A DNA stretch of 64,000 bases from Pseudomonas phage PhiPA3. The stretch lies in the sequence record HQ630627.1; one strand, written 5' to 3'. Both the position numbers and the translations under genes were made by a program. Below the pieces are notes generated by a model. The model had not been told where the DNA came from and did not search any database. It saw only the letters and a program-made list of their open reading frames with translations. The first letter of the stretch is position 1. Each line of letters opens with the position of its first letter. Positions 1,120-55,511 of the stretch are shown here, one piece after another.

Positions 1120-2446
1120 TTACTTCTTACTGGGTTTGAATAAGGGACTTGGCAAGAAACGCGTATGGATGAACGTCTTATTCAACATCGTCTATAATGC
1201 TAACGAAGGTCCTGAATACACGCTCAAGCCTTATTTCAAAGATGATCAGATGTACTTCTACAAGGAAGGCGATTCGAATGACGTTATCGAGTACATCGAA
1301 GATTATATCCCAAACCGAGCCCCATTGCATTTTCGGGATGAATTCATTTTACAACCAGGGGAGATCGCCAATTACAAAGGCACCGAACCCCTACGCACCA
1401 CCTACGGCAATGTCTTTGCCAACCACCTAATCCTGGTTGAAGCCTTCGGTGATCTGTTCCCCTTCCAAGCGGGTAAGTTCGATCCGGCTAAACTGGAAGA
1501 CCAAATCCTCGAACGCATGATTGATGACCGTGAAGATGGTGATGTCACTACCATGGCTGGTGACGGAAAACTGTATGTTTGGCAGTACCTGAAATTCGCT
1601 GATGCGTGCCTAGCTATCCCCGGCTACGCCGATAGCCTCGTCACATCCGTTACCAAGAAGTCTCTGACCAGCTCTCCAGAGCGTGACGCTGTGCGTGAGA
1701 AATGGGTAAAGGATAACGCACACCGACTACATGATCCTGCGGCTATTGCAGAGCTGGGCGTCCTGATGGGTAAAGTCGATGATGAATACCTAGAAGGCGA
1801 TGAAGCCAACGAGTTCTACAAATCGAAGAAGAAACTGGCCGGCGCTCGCCGTAAAGTACACTACTTCTTTGGTGGTGAATCCCCGTTCTCCGATGGCACT
1901 ACTGTTACGTTCATCAAGAAGTCATTGGAAGAAGGTATTGATACCGACTTCATGCCGGTGATGAACAACTCGCTGCGCTTCGGTTCTTACAACCGAGGTG
2001 CACAGACAGCGATGGGTGGTGAATCCACGAAGACTATTTACCGGATGGTAGGTACTGTTCGAATCATCGAACCCGACTGCAAAACCTGGATCGGTATTCC
2101 CACAATGGTGGATGACTTCAACGCCAAAACGTTGATTGGTTATTCCTACGTTGATAAGGGACGATCTATCCTTATCGAGAAAGATGACCTGGAATCTCTC
2201 AAAGGTCGCATCATTGACATCCGTGGTCCGATGACTTGTAAGTCTGGACGGGGTGAAGGGGATGCATTGGGTAAAGGTAAGAACATCTGTGCCGTGTGTG
2301 CAGGTAAAGCACTTGCCGAAAACCCGAACGGTATCCCCGCAGCCGCAGCAGGAGTCGGTGGTAGGTTCTTGATGATCTTTATGTCAAAGATGCACAGCTC
2401 TGTTCTAAGAACCGTGCACTGGGACATGAGACGCCGTATTACCTAG
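1106..2446 (+). CDS. multisubunit RNA polymerase beta-subunit-like protein, C-terminal segment (split phage RNAP)
   Basis: Track ORF 1028..2446 trimmed to ATG 1106 (MKLRDYF...); KLAGARRKVHYFFGGESPFSDGTTVTFI aligns with the RpoB stretch K-MAGRHGNKGV...DMPYDENGTPVDIV; last ~40 aa are low-complexity (possible frameshift or true divergent tail). Confidence 0.4.
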   Translation: MKLRDYFLLGLNKGLGKKRVWMNVLFNIVYNANEGPEYTLKPYFKDDQMYFYKEGDSNDVIEYIEDYIPNRAPLHFRDEFILQPGEIANYKGTEPLRTTYGNVFANHLILVEAFGDLFPFQAGKFDPAKLEDQILERMIDDREDGDVTTMAGDGKLYVWQYLKFADACLAIPGYADSLVTSVTKKSLTSSPERDAVREKWVKDNAHRLHDPAAIAELGVLMGKVDDEYLEGDEANEFYKSKKKLAGARRKVHYFFGGESPFSDGTTVTFIKKSLEEGIDTDFMPVMNNSLRFGSYNRGAQTAMGGESTKTIYRMVGTVRIIEPDCKTWIGIPTMVDDFNAKTLIGYSYVDKGRSILIEKDDLESLKGRIIDIRGPMTCKSGRGEGDALGKGKNICAVCAGKALAENPNGIPAAAAGVGGRFLMIFMSKMHSSVLRTVHWDMRRRIT

Positions 2447-9936: not shown

Positions 9937-10305
9937 TTAGTAACCCTCATTCAACAGATCGGATAATGCTCTAGCTTGAGAAATATCAGTGGAAGCAAAT
10001 ACGTCAGAAAGATAATAATCATGATCTTTTGCATTCTGACGTAATTCATTCATTAGTTGTTTATTGGATACAGCCCAAATTCTCCATAAGTCTTTATAGT
10101 CCTCATACTTAGGATTATACCCATCTAATGGAGGTTTACCTTTCCCTGCTTTCCAATTATTGGAATGTATTCTGTATCCTTTACAGTCTAATTGCCAAGC
10201 TTCCTCAATCGTTCGTCCATCCGGTAGCCGAGCAAACAGGGCAGAGAATCGTTTGTCGCCAACGGAGGAACATTCGTATCCTCCGCGACGCTTCCACCGA
10301 TACAT
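9937..10305 (-). CDS. hypothetical 122-aa protein, compositionally chimeric
   Basis: ATG overlaps stop of polymerase exon 2 (TAATG coupling); 5' half GC-normal, 3' half AT-rich. Confidence 0.5.
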   Translation of the reverse strand: MYRWKRRGGYECSSVGDKRFSALFARLPDGRTIEEAWQLDCKGYRIHSNNWKAGKGKPPLDGYNPKYEDYKDLWRIWAVSNKQLMNELRQNAKDHDYYLSDVFASTDISQARALSDLLNEGY

Positions 10306-10541
10306 TACTTTGGGGGTTGAGTTTCCTTGTGTTTTAGGTAAGCTGCCAGCATGTTATCCAGTTTGGCACCTTTCATGATCTTCTGTGCAATTTCGATACC
10401 GTTGACTCGACCCCCTGTCAGGTTCACACCCACTTCACGACGATCATGTTCAGAGATGTCTTTCATTGCCGAGAACTCCATGACGGTAGTCTCACGAGCA
10501 ATGTTCAGAATCTGACTCACGTTCGGATACGTACTTACAAT
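10305..10541 (-). CDS. family-B-like DNA polymerase, exon 2 (78 codons, carries second half of motif A: IVSTYPNVSQILNIARETT)
   Basis: open frame downstream of group I intron; STYPNVSQILNIARETT matches pol-B motif A region SLYPSIIRQVNISPET; ends after only 78 codons. Confidence 0.6.
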   Translation of the reverse strand: MVSTYPNVSQILNIARETTVMEFSAMKDISEHDRREVGVNLTGGRVNGIEIAQKIMKGAKLDNMLAAYLKHKETQPPK

Positions 10542-10885
10542 CCATACCTTCGATAGAGTTCGTTATGCTCTACCCGCGTTTACACGCTGCTCCAGGCTTT
10601 CCCTGGATGTGGAGACTATATCACCATCCTTCTCTTTCGAGGATCGGATGCTTCCTATTTCCACCCACTTGGATGTACTCCCTTACGGGATAGTCGTTGA
10701 ACGTTCTTCTCAGAGAGAAGCTTCGCTGCGGATTGCCCAATACATGTGTCTTTTACCATACCCAGTGAGTTAGACTGGCCATCTAGTATATCGCTATCTA
10801 GACTTGGTGCACATGTCTCTAAGGATTTCCCCGTCAATTAAAGAAGTTTGCATCAAGTGTTCCAACTTGATGGGACTAATATTTA
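10542..10885 (-). mobile_element. group I intron (ORF-less) in DNA polymerase gene
   Basis: minus-strand RNA has R-like GUUCAACGACUAUCC and S-like GAUAUAGUCUCC elements (P7 GACUAU/AUAGUC); exon ends in U, intron ends GGUAUGG (G); exon stop codon UAA is first intron triplet; splicing gives ADLD|IVSTYP. Confidence 0.7.
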
Positions 10886-12709
10886 ATCCAGATCAGCCAC
10901 GTGCGTAAACAAAAGTGTGTTGTAGTCGGGTAAGTCTTTGACACACTTCAGTCCGTTGGGTCCAGCCATGTACGAAGGCAGGGTAACGATCCAGGAATCG
11001 TGGCCAACAACATAGCTATCAAGATCATGAACCATCTGATCAGAGCTTGAACCAATTACACAGGGTTCAGGCCGCTTGAGATACCAGAAGTGCATGTCGT
11101 CGCACAGACGTTTCGGGTTAGAACTAAAGTTCTTGTAGTCCGAAGATTTCGAGAACAGAGTAATAGACGAAGCCAGGTCATTAATCTTTTCATCGAGTTG
11201 TTCCAGTCGAATGGAGTCGATGATGTTGTAAAGACCGTACCGGACTTTGTGGTTCTTCTGCATCTCAATGTGCCATTCGATACCTCCCAAGTAGTCAGTT
11301 TCAGCGAACTTCAGTTTACCAAAGTTCAGGCGCATCCCCACACCAAACCCAGGATGTACGTTGACACCCCAGACCAGCGAATCAACTTCTTCCCAGTGTT
11401 CTTCTCGTTCGACCTTTTCCTCACGGCGGTACTCGACTTGAACCCTCGGATCTTCCGGATCAATACCTTCTTGTAGCAGCTTCTCCTGAGCTGCGGTATA
11501 AACAGGGACATCGTTGTACGTGACGTCTACCTTATCCTTGCTCGGATCGTTGACCGACCAATATGGGTGGGCACCACTACGTTCAGCGATGGCTTTACCC
11601 ATCTTCTTCATCCAGCTGTTGAATTCCTCTTCAGTCTGAACAGTTTCCTGTTCATCCATGGAGAGTTCTTTCTTCAGGATGGCATCGAGGGCATAACTGG
11701 ATTCTTTACCTTTGGCCAATCGAGTTACACGATACGTGGCCATGGAGTCAATGCACTGGAACGACGCAGGTGCAGTAATCCAATGCCATTGGTCTTCTGG
11801 ACCTTTGGACTTGGTTACACCCGATGCCGTAGTGGTCATCGCTTGGTCTTGACGGTAATGGAAATACCGATAGTTCGGAGGAACTTGAGGATCACTGAAT
11901 ACGTTCTTCGGGTCAATGCCGTAGTTTTCCAGTGTGGTCAAGATTCGACTCATGTCGAAGTCGATATTCCAGAACGCGAAGAAGTCAGGCTTCCACTTGT
12001 GCAAACGACGCATGCAGTTGATGATGATATCAGCAGGCGAATTTACTACCTCAATTTCAATATTGAGATTACGTGCTTTTTTCAGAGTCACCAATTCTGG
12101 AATGCGTTCTAATTCGGCGAAGGTTTCGGCAACTGGGTCATCCAGATCTTTCACCCAATGCTTCAGATATGCCAGATACACGTTTTCCTTGTGTGTAACC
12201 GACATGCAGATAATCTGTCCCTCGTTCTCTTCTTCGTACACGTTGGTCTCGATGTCGCCACCGGCTACCGTGTTACGGGAAATAAGTTCCGGGTATTGCT
12301 CCCGGTAGTCGTTTTTGAGACAGCAGACTGAGCTTACGTCCGAACCGTACAGATAAGGGCTACGGCTCAATTGGCGCATACGTGGGTTAGGACCCATTGA
12401 GTAATCGCCTAACAACTTAGCGATCATACGTGGCATCTCCAGTTGAGTACAGGTGTACTTCTGGAGGTTACGTTCAAATTCGTAATCTTTCTTTTCTTTA
12501 TGATTTTGTCTTCCCTTCTGTGTAATCCAGAAGGGACGTTTGTAGTCTTCAACGACCCGAATACGTGGGATACGACGTTTGTCTTTAAGGTGAATGATTT
12601 CTTTGACTACGTGTGCATCATGCCTACGGCCAGTTTGGTCAGTCACATAAGTGATGTGTTTGGCTTCAATACCAACAACATCTTCTTTTGTAAATTGTAG
12701 GTCGGACAT
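10886..12709 (-). CDS. family-B-like DNA polymerase, exon 1 (3'-5' exonuclease domain to first half of motif A)
   Basis: Exo I GGDIETN, Exo II FAFWNIDFDMSRIL, Exo III YGLYNIIDSIRLEQLDEKI (like T4 YNIIDVESVQAIDKI); ends ...HVADLD. Confidence 0.65.
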
Positions 12710-52185: not shown

Positions 52186-52542
52186 TTAATTAGACCAAGC
52201 GTCATCGTCCATACCACCGATAATGCTACCCGGAACAATTTTGAGCGAGTAGTCTTCTTCTTTATCGATGTCCCATGGGATAATGCCACACGAACTGAAC
52301 GGCAGAAGAACATATTGGTCTTCTTCAGACGTCACAGTGTTCCGGTGCTTACCCCGTTGGATGGCGAGATACGATTTGCCTTTCACTTTGATGATGTGGT
52401 GGAACAGTTCTAGGTCAGGTTCCTGACCCAGTCGACGGCAACCGTCATAATAGCCTTTGTTGGCTACAACCTTCACGAAGTCTTCGGTGTTCTCCCGCAT
52501 GAGCTGGAGGGCATCAGAGCCGAGCTGGTGAGGACTGATAAA
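52186..52542 (-). CDS. DnaB-family replicative helicase, exon 2 (C-terminal 118 aa)
   Basis: FISPHQLGS aligns with DnaB VVALSQLNR (H3); EPDLELFHHII...LAIQRGKHRNTVT aligns with EQDADLIMFIYRDE...IIGKQRNGPIGTV (H4). Confidence 0.6.
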   Translation of the reverse strand, partial: FISPHQLGSDALQLMRENTEDFVKVVANKGYYDGCRRLGQEPDLELFHHIIKVKGKSYLAIQRGKHRNTVTSEEDQYVLLPFSSCGIIPWDIDKEEDYSLKIVPGSIIGGMDDDAWSN

Positions 52543-54344
52543 CGTGATACCTCTCGATGTGTTCAGTAAGGTTCGTTACACCTTACCCGCGCCATTATGC
52601 GCAGCTCCAGGCTTTCCCTGGATGTCCAGACTATATCTTCACCCTCGGTTTCCCGATAGGGTGCTTCCCACTTCGAGTTCACTTGAACTCTACTCCCCAC
52701 TACGGGATAGTCGTTGAACCTTCTCCGTGCCTTTCGGTTTAGGAGCTTGGCTGCTGATTGTCCAATTTCTACACTTGTTAAACCTTCATAGACTCCTTTC
52801 GGGTCTATTGTGGTAGTAGAACTCTGAAGGAGTTTCCAGCAATTCAGGAAGTACTCGTAAAGCATTACGGCTTTACGGCCCTAAATAAGTAACCCTTAGT
52901 TTCCTTATTAGTGCTCAGATTTAATCGAATTGTTTTCTCGTTTAGACCGGTTAGACGAGCTGCTTCTTTAATAGAAGCAACCTCAGTTATAACACCGGTA
53001 TTCACGCAGGTAACCAGAATGGCTTTAGCTTGTATTGGCTTGTCGATATACGCCGAATTATCGTACTTATTCGAATCCGTGCGGATTATCCAACGCTTAG
53101 CGTAGATGTATTTCAATCCACGACTTAGGTCGACTTGCAACTCCGCTTTAGATCTCCCACAGTGATTCGCTATCTCCTGTAAAGTAGCGAAGACATGGAG
53201 AGTATTCGTTTCTAGATCACTTACGTAGTAAGGTCCAGACAGATTATTCCTACTGTAATGAATTTCACAGTGCGGAACATGCTCTTTAAAACGAATGACG
53301 AAGTTGTCGATGGTTTCGAACCGATATGGTATTCCATACGCTGTCGCAATCTGTTTTACACGATTGAACTTCCGGCTCTGTCCAGTCCGCGTATCGAAAA
53401 CCGTTATGGTGAATATCGATTTACCAACTTTAAAATCGTTTATATCAACTGTTTCGTAATGCCATGGTGTTAAGTCATCCATGGTTTTTATTTCATACCG
53501 CTTGCCCCAAAGATAACCAGGCAGTTTAGTTTGAAAACTTACAGTTGAGTTACCTACACCAATACCGAGACTTCTGTTCATCTCGCTAATGGACCTGTAC
53601 GCAGTAACTTCTCCAGTTAGGACATCCCTAACCTTCGTACCAATAGGTGTTCCATTAAGACCGACTTCCAATGCATGCTGTGCATTTTCCGAAGCATCAC
53701 ACCATTCTAGGTTAGATACGTCGTTATTGGTCTTAACTCCATCAATATGGTTAACGAGCGGTCTTTTTACGAAACATTCGTTTGGAACCCATGCCAAAGC
53801 TACTAACCGATGAAATTTTACGGTACGATTGCAATTTCGATCGGGTACTCTGATATAACACGTGTAGTAACCTTTATCATCGAGTTTCACATCCGTGATA
53901 ATCGAATTCGTTTTGGTATCTAGCACATGCCCATTGGTATCAATAGCGTATCTTGGGTAGTTTGGTATATGCCTGAACCCATCGCAGTAGTAAATCGGTT
54001 CTGCGAATGTCATTATCTTTCCGCACCTTATTCTCAAAAGCGTGTTGTCCACGTCTTTGAAAATTATTTTGTCAAGGTGTTGGGATAGATTGGGAATGTC
54101 TTCACATTCGTACCAAGCAAGTAGACTGAGCCACTCGACTGTGACTGTATACTTTTTACCAAATAGAACGATATTAACTAATCCATTCTCTTCCGGTAGG
54201 GAAACATGTTTCCCCAATCGGTCAAATATTTGACCGTTTAAATCAATTCGGTATTCTGAACTACCAGGAATCTTTTTAATCACAGCCACACCCCAAGTTA
54301 AAAAATCAACTATAGGATATCTGTAATTAAAGGTAGGTAATTTA
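52543..54344 (-). mobile_element. group I intron in DnaB-like helicase gene, carrying HNH homing-endonuclease ORF
   Basis: core 52543-52870 homologous to intron at 10542-10885 (GUUCAACGACUAUCCCGUA, GAUAUAGUCU, CAGGGAAAGCCUGGAGC, GUAACGAAC); 5' exon ends CCU| with UAA as first intron triplet (same as intron 1); 3' end ...GGUAUCACG|; spliced protein ...NYTTP|FISPHQLGS aligns with DnaB ELNVPVVALSQLNR. Confidence 0.65.
52865..54289 (-). CDS. intron-encoded HNH homing endonuclease
   Basis: HRLVALAWVPN...VNHIDGVKTNNDVSNLEWCDASENAQHA (HNH H-N-H); GTG start in track; lies 5' of intron core. Confidence 0.7.
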   Translation of the reverse strand: MAVIKKIPGSSEYRIDLNGQIFDRLGKHVSLPEENGLVNIVLFGKKYTVTVEWLSLLAWYECEDIPNLSQHLDKIIFKDVDNTLLRIRCGKIMTFAEPIYYCDGFRHIPNYPRYAIDTNGHVLDTKTNSIITDVKLDDKGYYTCYIRVPDRNCNRTVKFHRLVALAWVPNECFVKRPLVNHIDGVKTNNDVSNLEWCDASENAQHALEVGLNGTPIGTKVRDVLTGEVTAYRSISEMNRSLGIGVGNSTVSFQTKLPGYLWGKRYEIKTMDDLTPWHYETVDINDFKVGKSIFTITVFDTRTGQSRKFNRVKQIATAYGIPYRFETIDNFVIRFKEHVPHCEIHYSRNNLSGPYYVSDLETNTLHVFATLQEIANHCGRSKAELQVDLSRGLKYIYAKRWIIRTDSNKYDNSAYIDKPIQAKAILVTCVNTGVITEVASIKEAARLTGLNEKTIRLNLSTNKETKGYLFRAVKP

Positions 54345-55511
54345 AGGAGTGGTATAGTTCCTCATGCGACGGAACAGCAGACGAATATCATCACCTGCTA
54401 CTTTCGCATCCAGACCAGTCTTTGGTAGCATGTTCAGGTAGTCAACCATCAGCATCTGGATTTCGTAACCCTGGGACTGGAGACCATCAAGGTAGTTGGT
54501 GAAACCACCAATGGTAAATTCAGTCGGGTCAAAACGGATCATCTTAACGTTGAAACCGTTCTCTTGCAGACGTGCACAGACATAAGCCGCAGCTTCTCGT
54601 TTGTCGATGTCAGCAACAATGATCTCTTCACCCGTTTCATTCTCACGGATATACTTGTAAATAGTTAGCAAGTTATCAGAGATTTCGTTTTCCAACGTAA
54701 CAAACAGCAACAGAGGCTTCTTCGTCTTGTCACGCATGAACGGACGGTTAAACAGAGCGATGTGCGAGAACAGCAACATTAGCATGTATGACTTGAAGTT
54801 GTGTTGCAGAGCCGCAGTGGTGATAAACTCGCCTCGACGAAATGCCCCCAAGCTACCCAGGATACGGTTAAATCCTTTCCAACCTGTTTTGAATGCACCG
54901 TCAGCAGACAGAGTAGTCTGTACCTGCTCAAAGAAATCTTCTACTGCTTCAGGCTCACTGAAGTCCAAGCAACCCATTTCAGCTGGGTGTCTACTTTCAG
55001 CACGCGCTTTGACATACGGATCGAGCTTAGCGCCCATCTCGTTAATAGCACCAGCGATATCGCCACTACCGCCACGGTTGAAAAGAAGCTTCTGCGAATA
55101 CTCTCGAACGATCTGCTTGATCTTTTCATCATTGAGGTGTGCGTTCAGCGCACTGCGACGAGAGTTGATAGCCCGCATAATGGACATCCCGTCAGGGAAA
55201 TCCTCTTTTACGCCATTGACTACCGCTTCGTACAGATAGTTTTCTTCCCGGCAACTCACTTGTACGGCTTGTAGAACTTCCGCCAAACTCGGGAAATCGT
55301 GCTTTGCTTTACTGTTCAGATCACCGACGAGCTTACGTAGTTCTAAGAACGTTTGCCGACCATGGTCGTGGTCAACAGTGGTATCACGGACTTCCAGTGT
55401 ATTGATGATTTCCGATATCAGTTCAGTTGATGGTGCAGCAGGAGAATCTTCACGGTGTTCCAAGCACAGCAGGGTAACACACTGTACGAGCAGTTGTTTC
55501 GGGGAGGACAT
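54345..55511 (-). CDS. DnaB-family replicative helicase, exon 1
   Basis: Walker B/H2 YEIQMLMVDYLNMLP (DnaB IDYLQLM); Walker A region reads AALQHNFKS (atypical); ends ...RMRNYTTP immediately before intron. Confidence 0.6.

Follow-up and report, generated by a model that had tools for sequence, protein, structure and literature searches.

The 64,000-nucleotide stretch of Pseudomonas phage PhiPA3 analysed here (sequence record HQ630627.1; hereafter the window, meaning this whole stretch) carries two group I introns on its minus strand: intron A, without an open reading frame (ORF), in a family-B DNA polymerase gene, and intron B, with an ORF for a predicted HNH homing endonuclease, in a DnaB-like helicase gene. 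These are most probably (at roughly 0.85) two separate mobile introns of one structural family, of the subgroup IA type, that were acquired independently and anciently. They would share family ancestry only, each having arrived at its site independently and long ago, since each is nearer to introns of other phages than to its genomic partner. A sequence-only reading of the same DNA had proposed a different history, in which the two cores are near-copies, one intron having spread within the genome and the endonuclease having then been lost from one copy.

Relationship between the two introns

At the nucleotide level the window shares ~78-80% identity with Pawinskivirus jumbo phages of Pseudomonas, among them HPP-Temi, PA1C and PS119XW. 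An Rfam scan of its 64 kb gave exactly two matches, each of them a full-length group I intron in minus-strand orientation. These were compared with 14 others in a 16-intron MAFFT alignment, the additional members including the HPP-Temi polymerase intron; a helicase intron from IMG/VR contig L009; phiKZ-group introns adjoining RNA-polymerase subunit genes (KTN4, SL2, OMKO1 and phiKZ); RNA-polymerase-gene introns of 201phi2-1, Serratia 2050HW and IMG/VR contig L010; and introns of one Bacillus phage and one N4-like Pseudomonas phage. Six metagenomic introns joined the set later, and the conservation of sequence blocks was checked in 22 introns. The family is large and extends to phiKZ-like phages, to phages of Serratia and Bacillus, and to metagenomic sequences.

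Gap-permissive global pairwise alignment was set aside as a measure, and stricter scoring and the multiple alignment were used in its place: the 76-78% A-B 'identity' that it returns is an uninformative artefact, because shuffled sequence reaches 73% under the same scoring. Under strict scoring A and B align globally at a score of 69, where shuffles give 2.2 +/- 1.4, and are clearly homologous; their assignment to one intron family within one genome is upheld. The description of near-copies is not, as A-B identity on the 16-intron alignment is 59-60% against a family background of 52-68%, and the blocks on which that description rested recur in unrelated introns. Nor do A and B behave as recent duplicates, which would be mutual nearest relatives with identity over the family background outside the core; by the standard that the sequence-only reading had set for its own refutation, A-B identity is essentially no higher than background outside the generic group I consensus.

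The nearest relatives of each intron lie in other genomes. On the MAFFT alignment B is closer to KTN4_1 (67-68%) and to the L009 and Serratia 2050HW introns (~65-67% each), and in pairwise comparisons it is nearer to KTN4_1, OMKO1_1, Ser2050HW, metagenomic contig L048 and L009 than to A, which under strict global scoring ranks 9th of 20 among the partners of B. The only close relative of A is the HPP-Temi polymerase intron (85-86%); all others are at about the same distance from it, with 201phi2-1 at 64%, Bacillus LY2 at 61% and B at 59-60%. Neighbour-joining (NJ) bootstrap analysis groups A with HPP-Temi at 100% and recovers no A+B clade. Diverged phages moreover carry an orthologue of each intron at the corresponding site: HPP-Temi carries the polymerase intron at the same position, with a core 82.6-87% identical to A, and L009 carries the helicase intron together with its HNH ORF at the identical site, with a core ~65-75% identical to B in a helicase that is 59% identical at the amino-acid level. 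On account of these own-site orthologues, the sequences place the A/B split before the divergence of the window phage from HPP-Temi, and probably before its divergence from L009. An in-frame TAG stands in helicase exon 1 of L009 (6648-6650) where the window has Glu, and could be a sequencing error, a pseudogene mutation or a recoded stop.

Every sequence block that the sequence-only reading had quoted as common to both intervals was found there. The minus-strand positions are 10738-10719 for GGGCAAUCCGCAGCGAAGCU and 52763-52744 for its counterpart GGACAAUCAGCAGCCAAGCU; GUUCAACGACUAUCCCGUA begins at 10702 in A and 52719 in B, matching at 19/19 positions; GAUAUAGUCU lies at 10622-10613 and 52637-52628; and ACAUCCAGGGAAAGCCUGGAGC at 10610-10589 and 52625-52604. 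Across the 22 introns checked, GTTCAACGACTA and GATATAGTCT show little or no variation, and in the J6/7-P7 block each window intron is one substitution away from introns of other phages and three away from its partner. When the introns are compared segment by segment, the P9 hairpin alone stands out (20/20), P1-P3, the P5 extension, P6, P7.1-7.2, P8 and the 3' tail all being at background, with P2, the P5 extension, P6 and P8 made up of unrelated sequences in A and B.

The P9 hairpin was considered as a mark of a specific A/B relationship and rejected, as the exact 22-nucleotide sequence also occurs in IMG/VR and metagenomic introns of other genes; exact copies stand in the introns of HPP-Temi, L009 and L010 and in six unrelated metagenomic ones. 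Across the family P9 covaries, as judged by eye (CCAGG/CCUGG, CUAG/CUAG, CUGAG/CUCAG, GCAUG/CAUGC), and the exact hairpin common to A and B is therefore one state, though a widespread one, of a variable helix. The same 22-mer occurs by chance within a protein-coding gene of unrelated metagenomic contigs (L046 1813-1834; L049 6664-6685), and is thus not by itself diagnostic of an intron. A second candidate trace of transposition, from helicase to polymerase, was the resemblance of the intron A 3' end, AUCGAAGGUAUGG, to helicase exon 2 (AUCG/AGAGGUAU) as a fossil of that exon; this likeness is attributed to chance, because a 3' tail consensus of the family, ACUGAAxAxxxCG, aligns A and B end to end.

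Several observations weigh against independent acquisition. Under strict scoring B is nominally within the top two non-orthologous partners of A (L048 72, B 69, L009 50); the exact P9 hairpin and the UCCCGUA start of P7.1 are common to both introns, so that A and B could belong to one sub-lineage of the family; the MAFFT alignment is uncertain in the peripheral domains, and the deep NJ nodes have low bootstrap values of 9-55%. As regards splicing, a long-read transcriptome study saw none, under the conditions that it used, for the introns predicted in phiKZ (PMC10914365).

The high rank of B among the partners of A, the common family architecture, the identical P9 hairpin and the 19/19 match of GUUCAACGACUAUCCCGUA would also be expected had one intron been copied recently to an ectopic site in the same genome and the endonuclease then lost from one copy. 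Such a history is nonetheless highly improbable, given a background level of A-B identity, introns of other phages that lie nearer to B than A does, an L048 intron as close to A as B is, unrelated peripheral domains, a P9 hairpin found in nine or more other introns, an own-site orthologue of each intron in a diverged phage, and endonucleases at the two sites (the HPP-Temi enzyme representing the polymerase intron) that share only 34% identity over 181 amino acids.

Local gene conversion between the co-resident introns, with P9 and the first part of P7.1 homogenised and the remainder left divergent, would account for a 20/20 P9 flanked by segments at background, and for the P7.1-P7.2 region, in which window A is unlike HPP-Temi and resembles window B over the first 7 nucleotides. 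This too is very unlikely: HPP-Temi has the same P9 in a genome without the helicase intron, the L009, L010 and six metagenomic introns have this P9 too, and the P7.1-P7.2 region of A is the common family form, HPP-Temi being the one that carries an OMKO1_2-like replacement. The whole P7.1-P7.2 module differs between window A (10662-10690) and HPP-Temi (L001 ~1960-2040, minus strand), the former having the form of Bacillus LY2, 201phi2-1 and FBPa1, and the latter that of the phiKZ-like OMKO1_2; this pattern suggests modular exchange of peripheral domains between introns. Independent and ancient acquisition of two family members thus remains the preferred account.

Intron boundaries, structure and host genes

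Both intervals are real group I introns (Table 1). Each match to RF00028 covers model positions 1-253 untruncated on the minus strand and exceeds the gathering score of 50, with 71.7 bits for intron A (10895..10590) and 83.1 bits for intron B (52900..52607); in each, as read from the sequence, the 5' exon ends in a U that forms a U.G wobble with the internal guide in P1, and the intron ends in G; and removal of each gives back an uninterrupted conserved frame, judged against the PA1C polymerase and the HPP-Temi helicase. Guanosine-dependent self-splicing would be expected of both, the transcribed introns excising themselves and the exons being joined in frame.

Intron A begins UAAAUA after an exon ending GGAU, the last U of the GAU codon being the 5' splice site, and closes with the terminal G at 10542. 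Its P1 is a 7-bp stem in which GGAU/UAA (10889-10883) pairs with UUAGUCC (10879-10873) around a 3-nucleotide AUA loop, with the U.G wobble at the splice site. Joining 10886 to 10541 gives HVADLD/IVSTYPNV and a gapless alignment with the intron-less PA1C polymerase, by which the interval proposed by the sequence-only reading for this intron proves exact. The insertion point lies inside polymerase motif A (DxxSxYP), at DLD/IVSTYPN, with the exonuclease motifs in exon 1.

The interval proposed for the helicase intron, 52543-52870, required revision at both ends, 52870 marking merely an ORF end and the intron extending from 54344 at its 5' end to 52555 at its 3' end. A terminal G at 52543 was ruled out because the resulting helicase reads TTP----FISPHQL where intron-less HPP-Temi has TTPRGITFISPHQL, leaving the protein four residues short; the missing RGIT (AGA GGU AUC ACG) is encoded at 52554-52543, so that the terminal G is 52555 and exon 2 starts at 52554. 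Splicing there restores TTP/RGITFISPHQL and a protein 85% identical to the intron-less HPP-Temi helicase, the junction DNA being ACTCCT/CGTGGTATTAC in HPP-Temi and ACTCCT/AGAGGTATCAC in the window after splicing. In the predicted P1 of intron B, CCU/UAAA pairs with the guide sequence UUUAGGG and the U of the splice site forms a U.G wobble, a layout that matches intron A and the HPP-Temi polymerase intron.

Table 1. Coordinates of the introns, their elements and the exons that they separate, in window positions
Feature	Coordinates	Strand	Basis or remark
DNA polymerase (family B) exon 1	10886..12709	-	ORF list (ORF 10883..12709); ends ...HVADLD, codon GAU
Group I intron A, 344 nt, without ORF	10542..10885	-	Rfam RF00028; boundaries from intron-less PA1C allele
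P9 hairpin ACAUCCAGGGAAAGCCUGGAGC of intron A	10589..10610	-	Sole long block identical to intron B
DNA polymerase exon 2 (IVSTYPNVSQ... to stop)	10305..10541	-	ORF list and splice comparison
DnaB-like helicase exon 1	54345..55511	-	ORF 54342..55511; ends ...RNYTTP, codon CCU, then UAAAUU
Group I intron B, total length 1790 nt	52555..54344	-	5' splice site after U54345, to terminal G 52555
P1 5' strand CCU/UAAA of intron B	54341..54347	-	Predicted to pair with internal guide UUUAGGG 52885-52879; read from sequence
HNH homing-endonuclease ORF (predicted), 474 aa, in P1 loop, 5' of core	52865..54289	-	Pfam HNH_3 and NUMOD1
Intron B ribozyme core (internal guide, P2-P9, P9.1, P9.2, terminal G)	52555..52885	-	Rfam and covariation; interval of the sequence-only reading with revised ends
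P9 hairpin of intron B, same as that of intron A	52604..52625	-	Sequence identity
Helicase exon 2 (RGITFISPHQL... to stop)	52186..52554	-	First codon AGA; intron-less alleles CGN

Subgroup IA introns are distinguished by the extra hairpins P7.1 and P7.2 between P7 and the 3' strand of P3, and two such hairpins follow GUUCAACGACUA in both window introns; each pair of P7.1 has compensatory changes in 4-5 of the 10 sequences, and P7.2 was read by eye only. RNAalifold, run on ten 3' intron halves for covariation, recovers P7, P7.1, P8, P9.1 and P9.2, with compensatory changes at 19 of the 31 predicted pairs (in P7.1, P8, P9.1 and P9.2), as well as an invariant pairing of GUUCA 5' of P7 with UGAA just before the terminal G. 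Spurious ORFs of 60 amino acids (10655-10837) and 100 amino acids (52563-52865) lie within the two ribozyme cores on the minus strand; both render the conserved J6/7-P7 block as IGQSAAKLL and could be miscalled as genes.

In the window (10305-12709, minus strand), as in all relatives, the polymerase ORF stops ~75 amino acids past motif A, and motifs B and C must therefore be encoded elsewhere, which raises the question of a split family-B polymerase. Relative to PA1C the window polymerase has a ~44-amino-acid insertion around residues 385-430. A 122-amino-acid ORF (9937-10305, minus strand) that shares one base with the polymerase stop codon is conserved downstream of the HPP-Temi polymerase and has no Pfam match.

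The endonuclease ORF and its presence or absence

Within the window, the HNH ORF is confined to the helicase intron and lies 5' of the core, as the sequence-only reading had placed it. It opens with GUG, but conservation in L009 makes a second GUG, at 54283, the more probable start; at the other end the final codons traverse the internal guide and the stop codon lies within the P2 loop. The product matches Pfam HNH_3 at 26.0 bits (cut-off 24.8) over residues 179-204 (NHIDG...NLEW...EN..H), a motif kept in the L009 orthologue, and NUMOD1 at 39.5 bits (cut-off 22.8), which places a NUMOD/helix-turn-helix module C-terminal to the HNH motif; the I-HmuI NUMOD-like domain at the C-terminus of the protein scores 21.5 bits, under its cut-off of 27, and the match to the I-HmuI structure (PDB 1U3E) is weak (E=0.006). 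The protein is 54% identical to its L009 orthologue at the amino-acid level and ~35% identical over ~175 residues to phiKZ gp179. A close pairing with the HPP-Temi polymerase-intron HNH, as parts of a shared recent intron-plus-endonuclease unit, was considered and dismissed, the identity noted above being no closer than that to phiKZ gp179.

From these domain matches the ORF is predicted to encode an I-HmuI-type HNH/NUMOD homing endonuclease, from which nicking of the intron-less allele and homing would be expected. The enzyme would nick the intron-less helicase alleles of co-infecting relatives, and repair would then copy intron B together with adjacent exon bases into the nicked allele.

For the polymerase intron, the sequence-only reading had inferred that an endonuclease was lost. 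The HPP-Temi orthologue reads GGAU/UAAAUAU, then ~1.4 kb with a 444-amino-acid HNH ORF, then UAGUCCC, where the window reads GGAU/UAAAUAU-UAGUCCC; the two thus differ precisely in whether this segment is present in the P1 loop, which in the window is 3 nucleotides long. The proposed loss has partial support in this endonuclease-bearing orthologue of intron A. P1-loop HNH ORFs occur in window B, L009, HPP-Temi, Serratia 2050HW, KTN4 intron 2 and phiKZ gp179, so that the ORF-bearing layout is probably old, and the same phiKZ-group intron is found with an HNH/NUMOD ORF in KTN4 (L003 3436-4760) and without one in SL2 (L004 3512-3870) at 99% core identity, so that an ORF has recently been gained or lost within this intron family. 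With ORFs so widespread and the KTN4/SL2 pair at hand, loss of the HNH gene in the lineage of the window polymerase intron is judged somewhat likelier than its gain in HPP-Temi, and intron A would then be an ORF-deleted derivative, the favoured alternative, rather than an ORF-free ancestor.

An ancestral ORF-free polymerase intron, from which nothing was lost in the window and into whose P1 loop an HNH gene independently invaded in the HPP-Temi lineage, is possible, if distinctly the less probable course. The P1 of window A is a clean 7-bp stem with a 3-nucleotide loop and no ORF remnant, the HNH proteins of family members are highly divergent, and independent invasion of introns by endonuclease genes has been described (Bell-Pedersen 1990; Goodrich-Blair & Shub 1994, as cited in PMC11620839); an old P1-loop layout, the quick ORF turnover represented by KTN4 and SL2, and the ORF decay after fixation that the standard homing cycle predicts all point the other way.

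Distribution, flanking codons and known systems

The survey of relatives that the sequence-only reading had suggested found intron-less alleles at both sites, and these dominate. HPP-Temi and 7/7 full-length IMG/VR loci have no intron in the helicase gene, and the polymerase site is empty in PA1C, PS119XW, phiLBG22, BRkr, phiHQ and HHBS36_1 and in 15/15 IMG/VR loci. Further polymerase-site orthologues were sought in viral contigs with TAACGAACTCTATCGAAG, which returned only two chance matches, neither of them an intron.

Flanking codons, compared in the window and loci L002, L007, L008, L009 and L011-L033, differ between occupied and empty sites. At the helicase flank (52552-52554) both intron-bearing alleles have Arg AGA and 7/7 intron-less alleles read have CGN; at the polymerase flank (10533-10541) both intron-bearing alleles read GAT/ATTGT.AGT, with Ser AGT, where the 16/16 intron-less alleles read have Ser TCN and mostly end exon 1 in GAC (GAC/ATY GTN TCN). 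The terminal U of GAU is also required for the P1 wobble pair. These shared codons look like the classical signature of co-conversion in homing, of target-site immunity, or of both, and supply ready predictions for the endonuclease target and for immunity. With the sporadic distribution of the introns they form the indirect evidence for homing.

HNH-bearing group I introns are established in nucleus-forming jumbo phages (PMC11620839; review PMC12908238), and in phiKZ have been predicted since its genome paper, as cited in PMC10914365; phiKZ-group introns (KTN4_1, phiKZ gp179 region) align with the window introns over their full length. PhiPA3 gp210 nicks the phiKZ RNA-polymerase gene and confers a competitive advantage (Birkholz et al. 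2024, PMC11620839; review PMC12908238). Like the gp210 intron, which lies in a virion RNA-polymerase gene, the window introns belong to the phiKZ-like jumbo phage group, occupy conserved catalytic-site sequence of essential genes and have intron-less alleles in relatives, with an HNH encoded within the intron; they differ in that the hosts are a DnaB-like helicase and a DNA polymerase and the HNH is much larger (474 amino acids). The HPP-Temi polymerase intron (PP968062, CDS0345-0348, annotated only as split coding sequences (CDSs)) shares the site and flanking synonymous codons of window A and differs in its 444-amino-acid P1-loop HNH and its P7.1-P7.2 module.

The introns of Bacillus phages SPO1/SP82 and Bastille (I-HmuI, I-HmuII, I-BasI) are likewise group I introns of phage DNA polymerases with I-HmuI-type HNH nicking enzymes, but the polymerase family and insertion site differ and the protein likeness is weak, at the E-value given above; for Bacillus phage polymerase introns, titles cited in PMC11620839 describe similar introns with highly divergent ORFs. 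The window resembles T4 in that a single phage has more than one intron of a family, not all of them with an endonuclease gene, although its introns have no detectable close sequence relationship to those of T4. The T4 td, nrdB and sunY genes contain several related subgroup IA introns in DNA-metabolism genes, some with a functional endonuclease ORF and some without, their distribution among relatives being sporadic and the ORFs being GIY-YIG or decayed HNH genes in other loops. The coexistence of family-related mobile introns with and without an endonuclease has thus been familiar since T4, and no concept is changed; what is added is two homing sites in nucleus-forming jumbo phages, at helicase TTP/RGIT and polymerase motif A. 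For annotation, both genes are intact after splicing, where GenBank relatives are listed as split 'DNA polymerase' CDSs or hypothetical proteins.

A further role for the helicase-intron HNH, as a weapon against co-infecting relatives that lack the intron (Pawinskivirus phages like HPP-Temi), whose helicase gene it would nick and whose replication it would impair, as PhiPA3 gp210 does against phiKZ, is speculative and rather unlikely, as is mobilisation of the ORF-free polymerase intron in trans by the endonucleases of relatives; if true, it would extend intron-mediated interference competition to replication genes. Among the comparison genomes, the portal-gene intron region of Bacillus phage vB_BceH_LY2 also contains a RAGATH-18 RNA (70.9 bits; L037 2950-3013) adjoining transposase-annotated ORFs.

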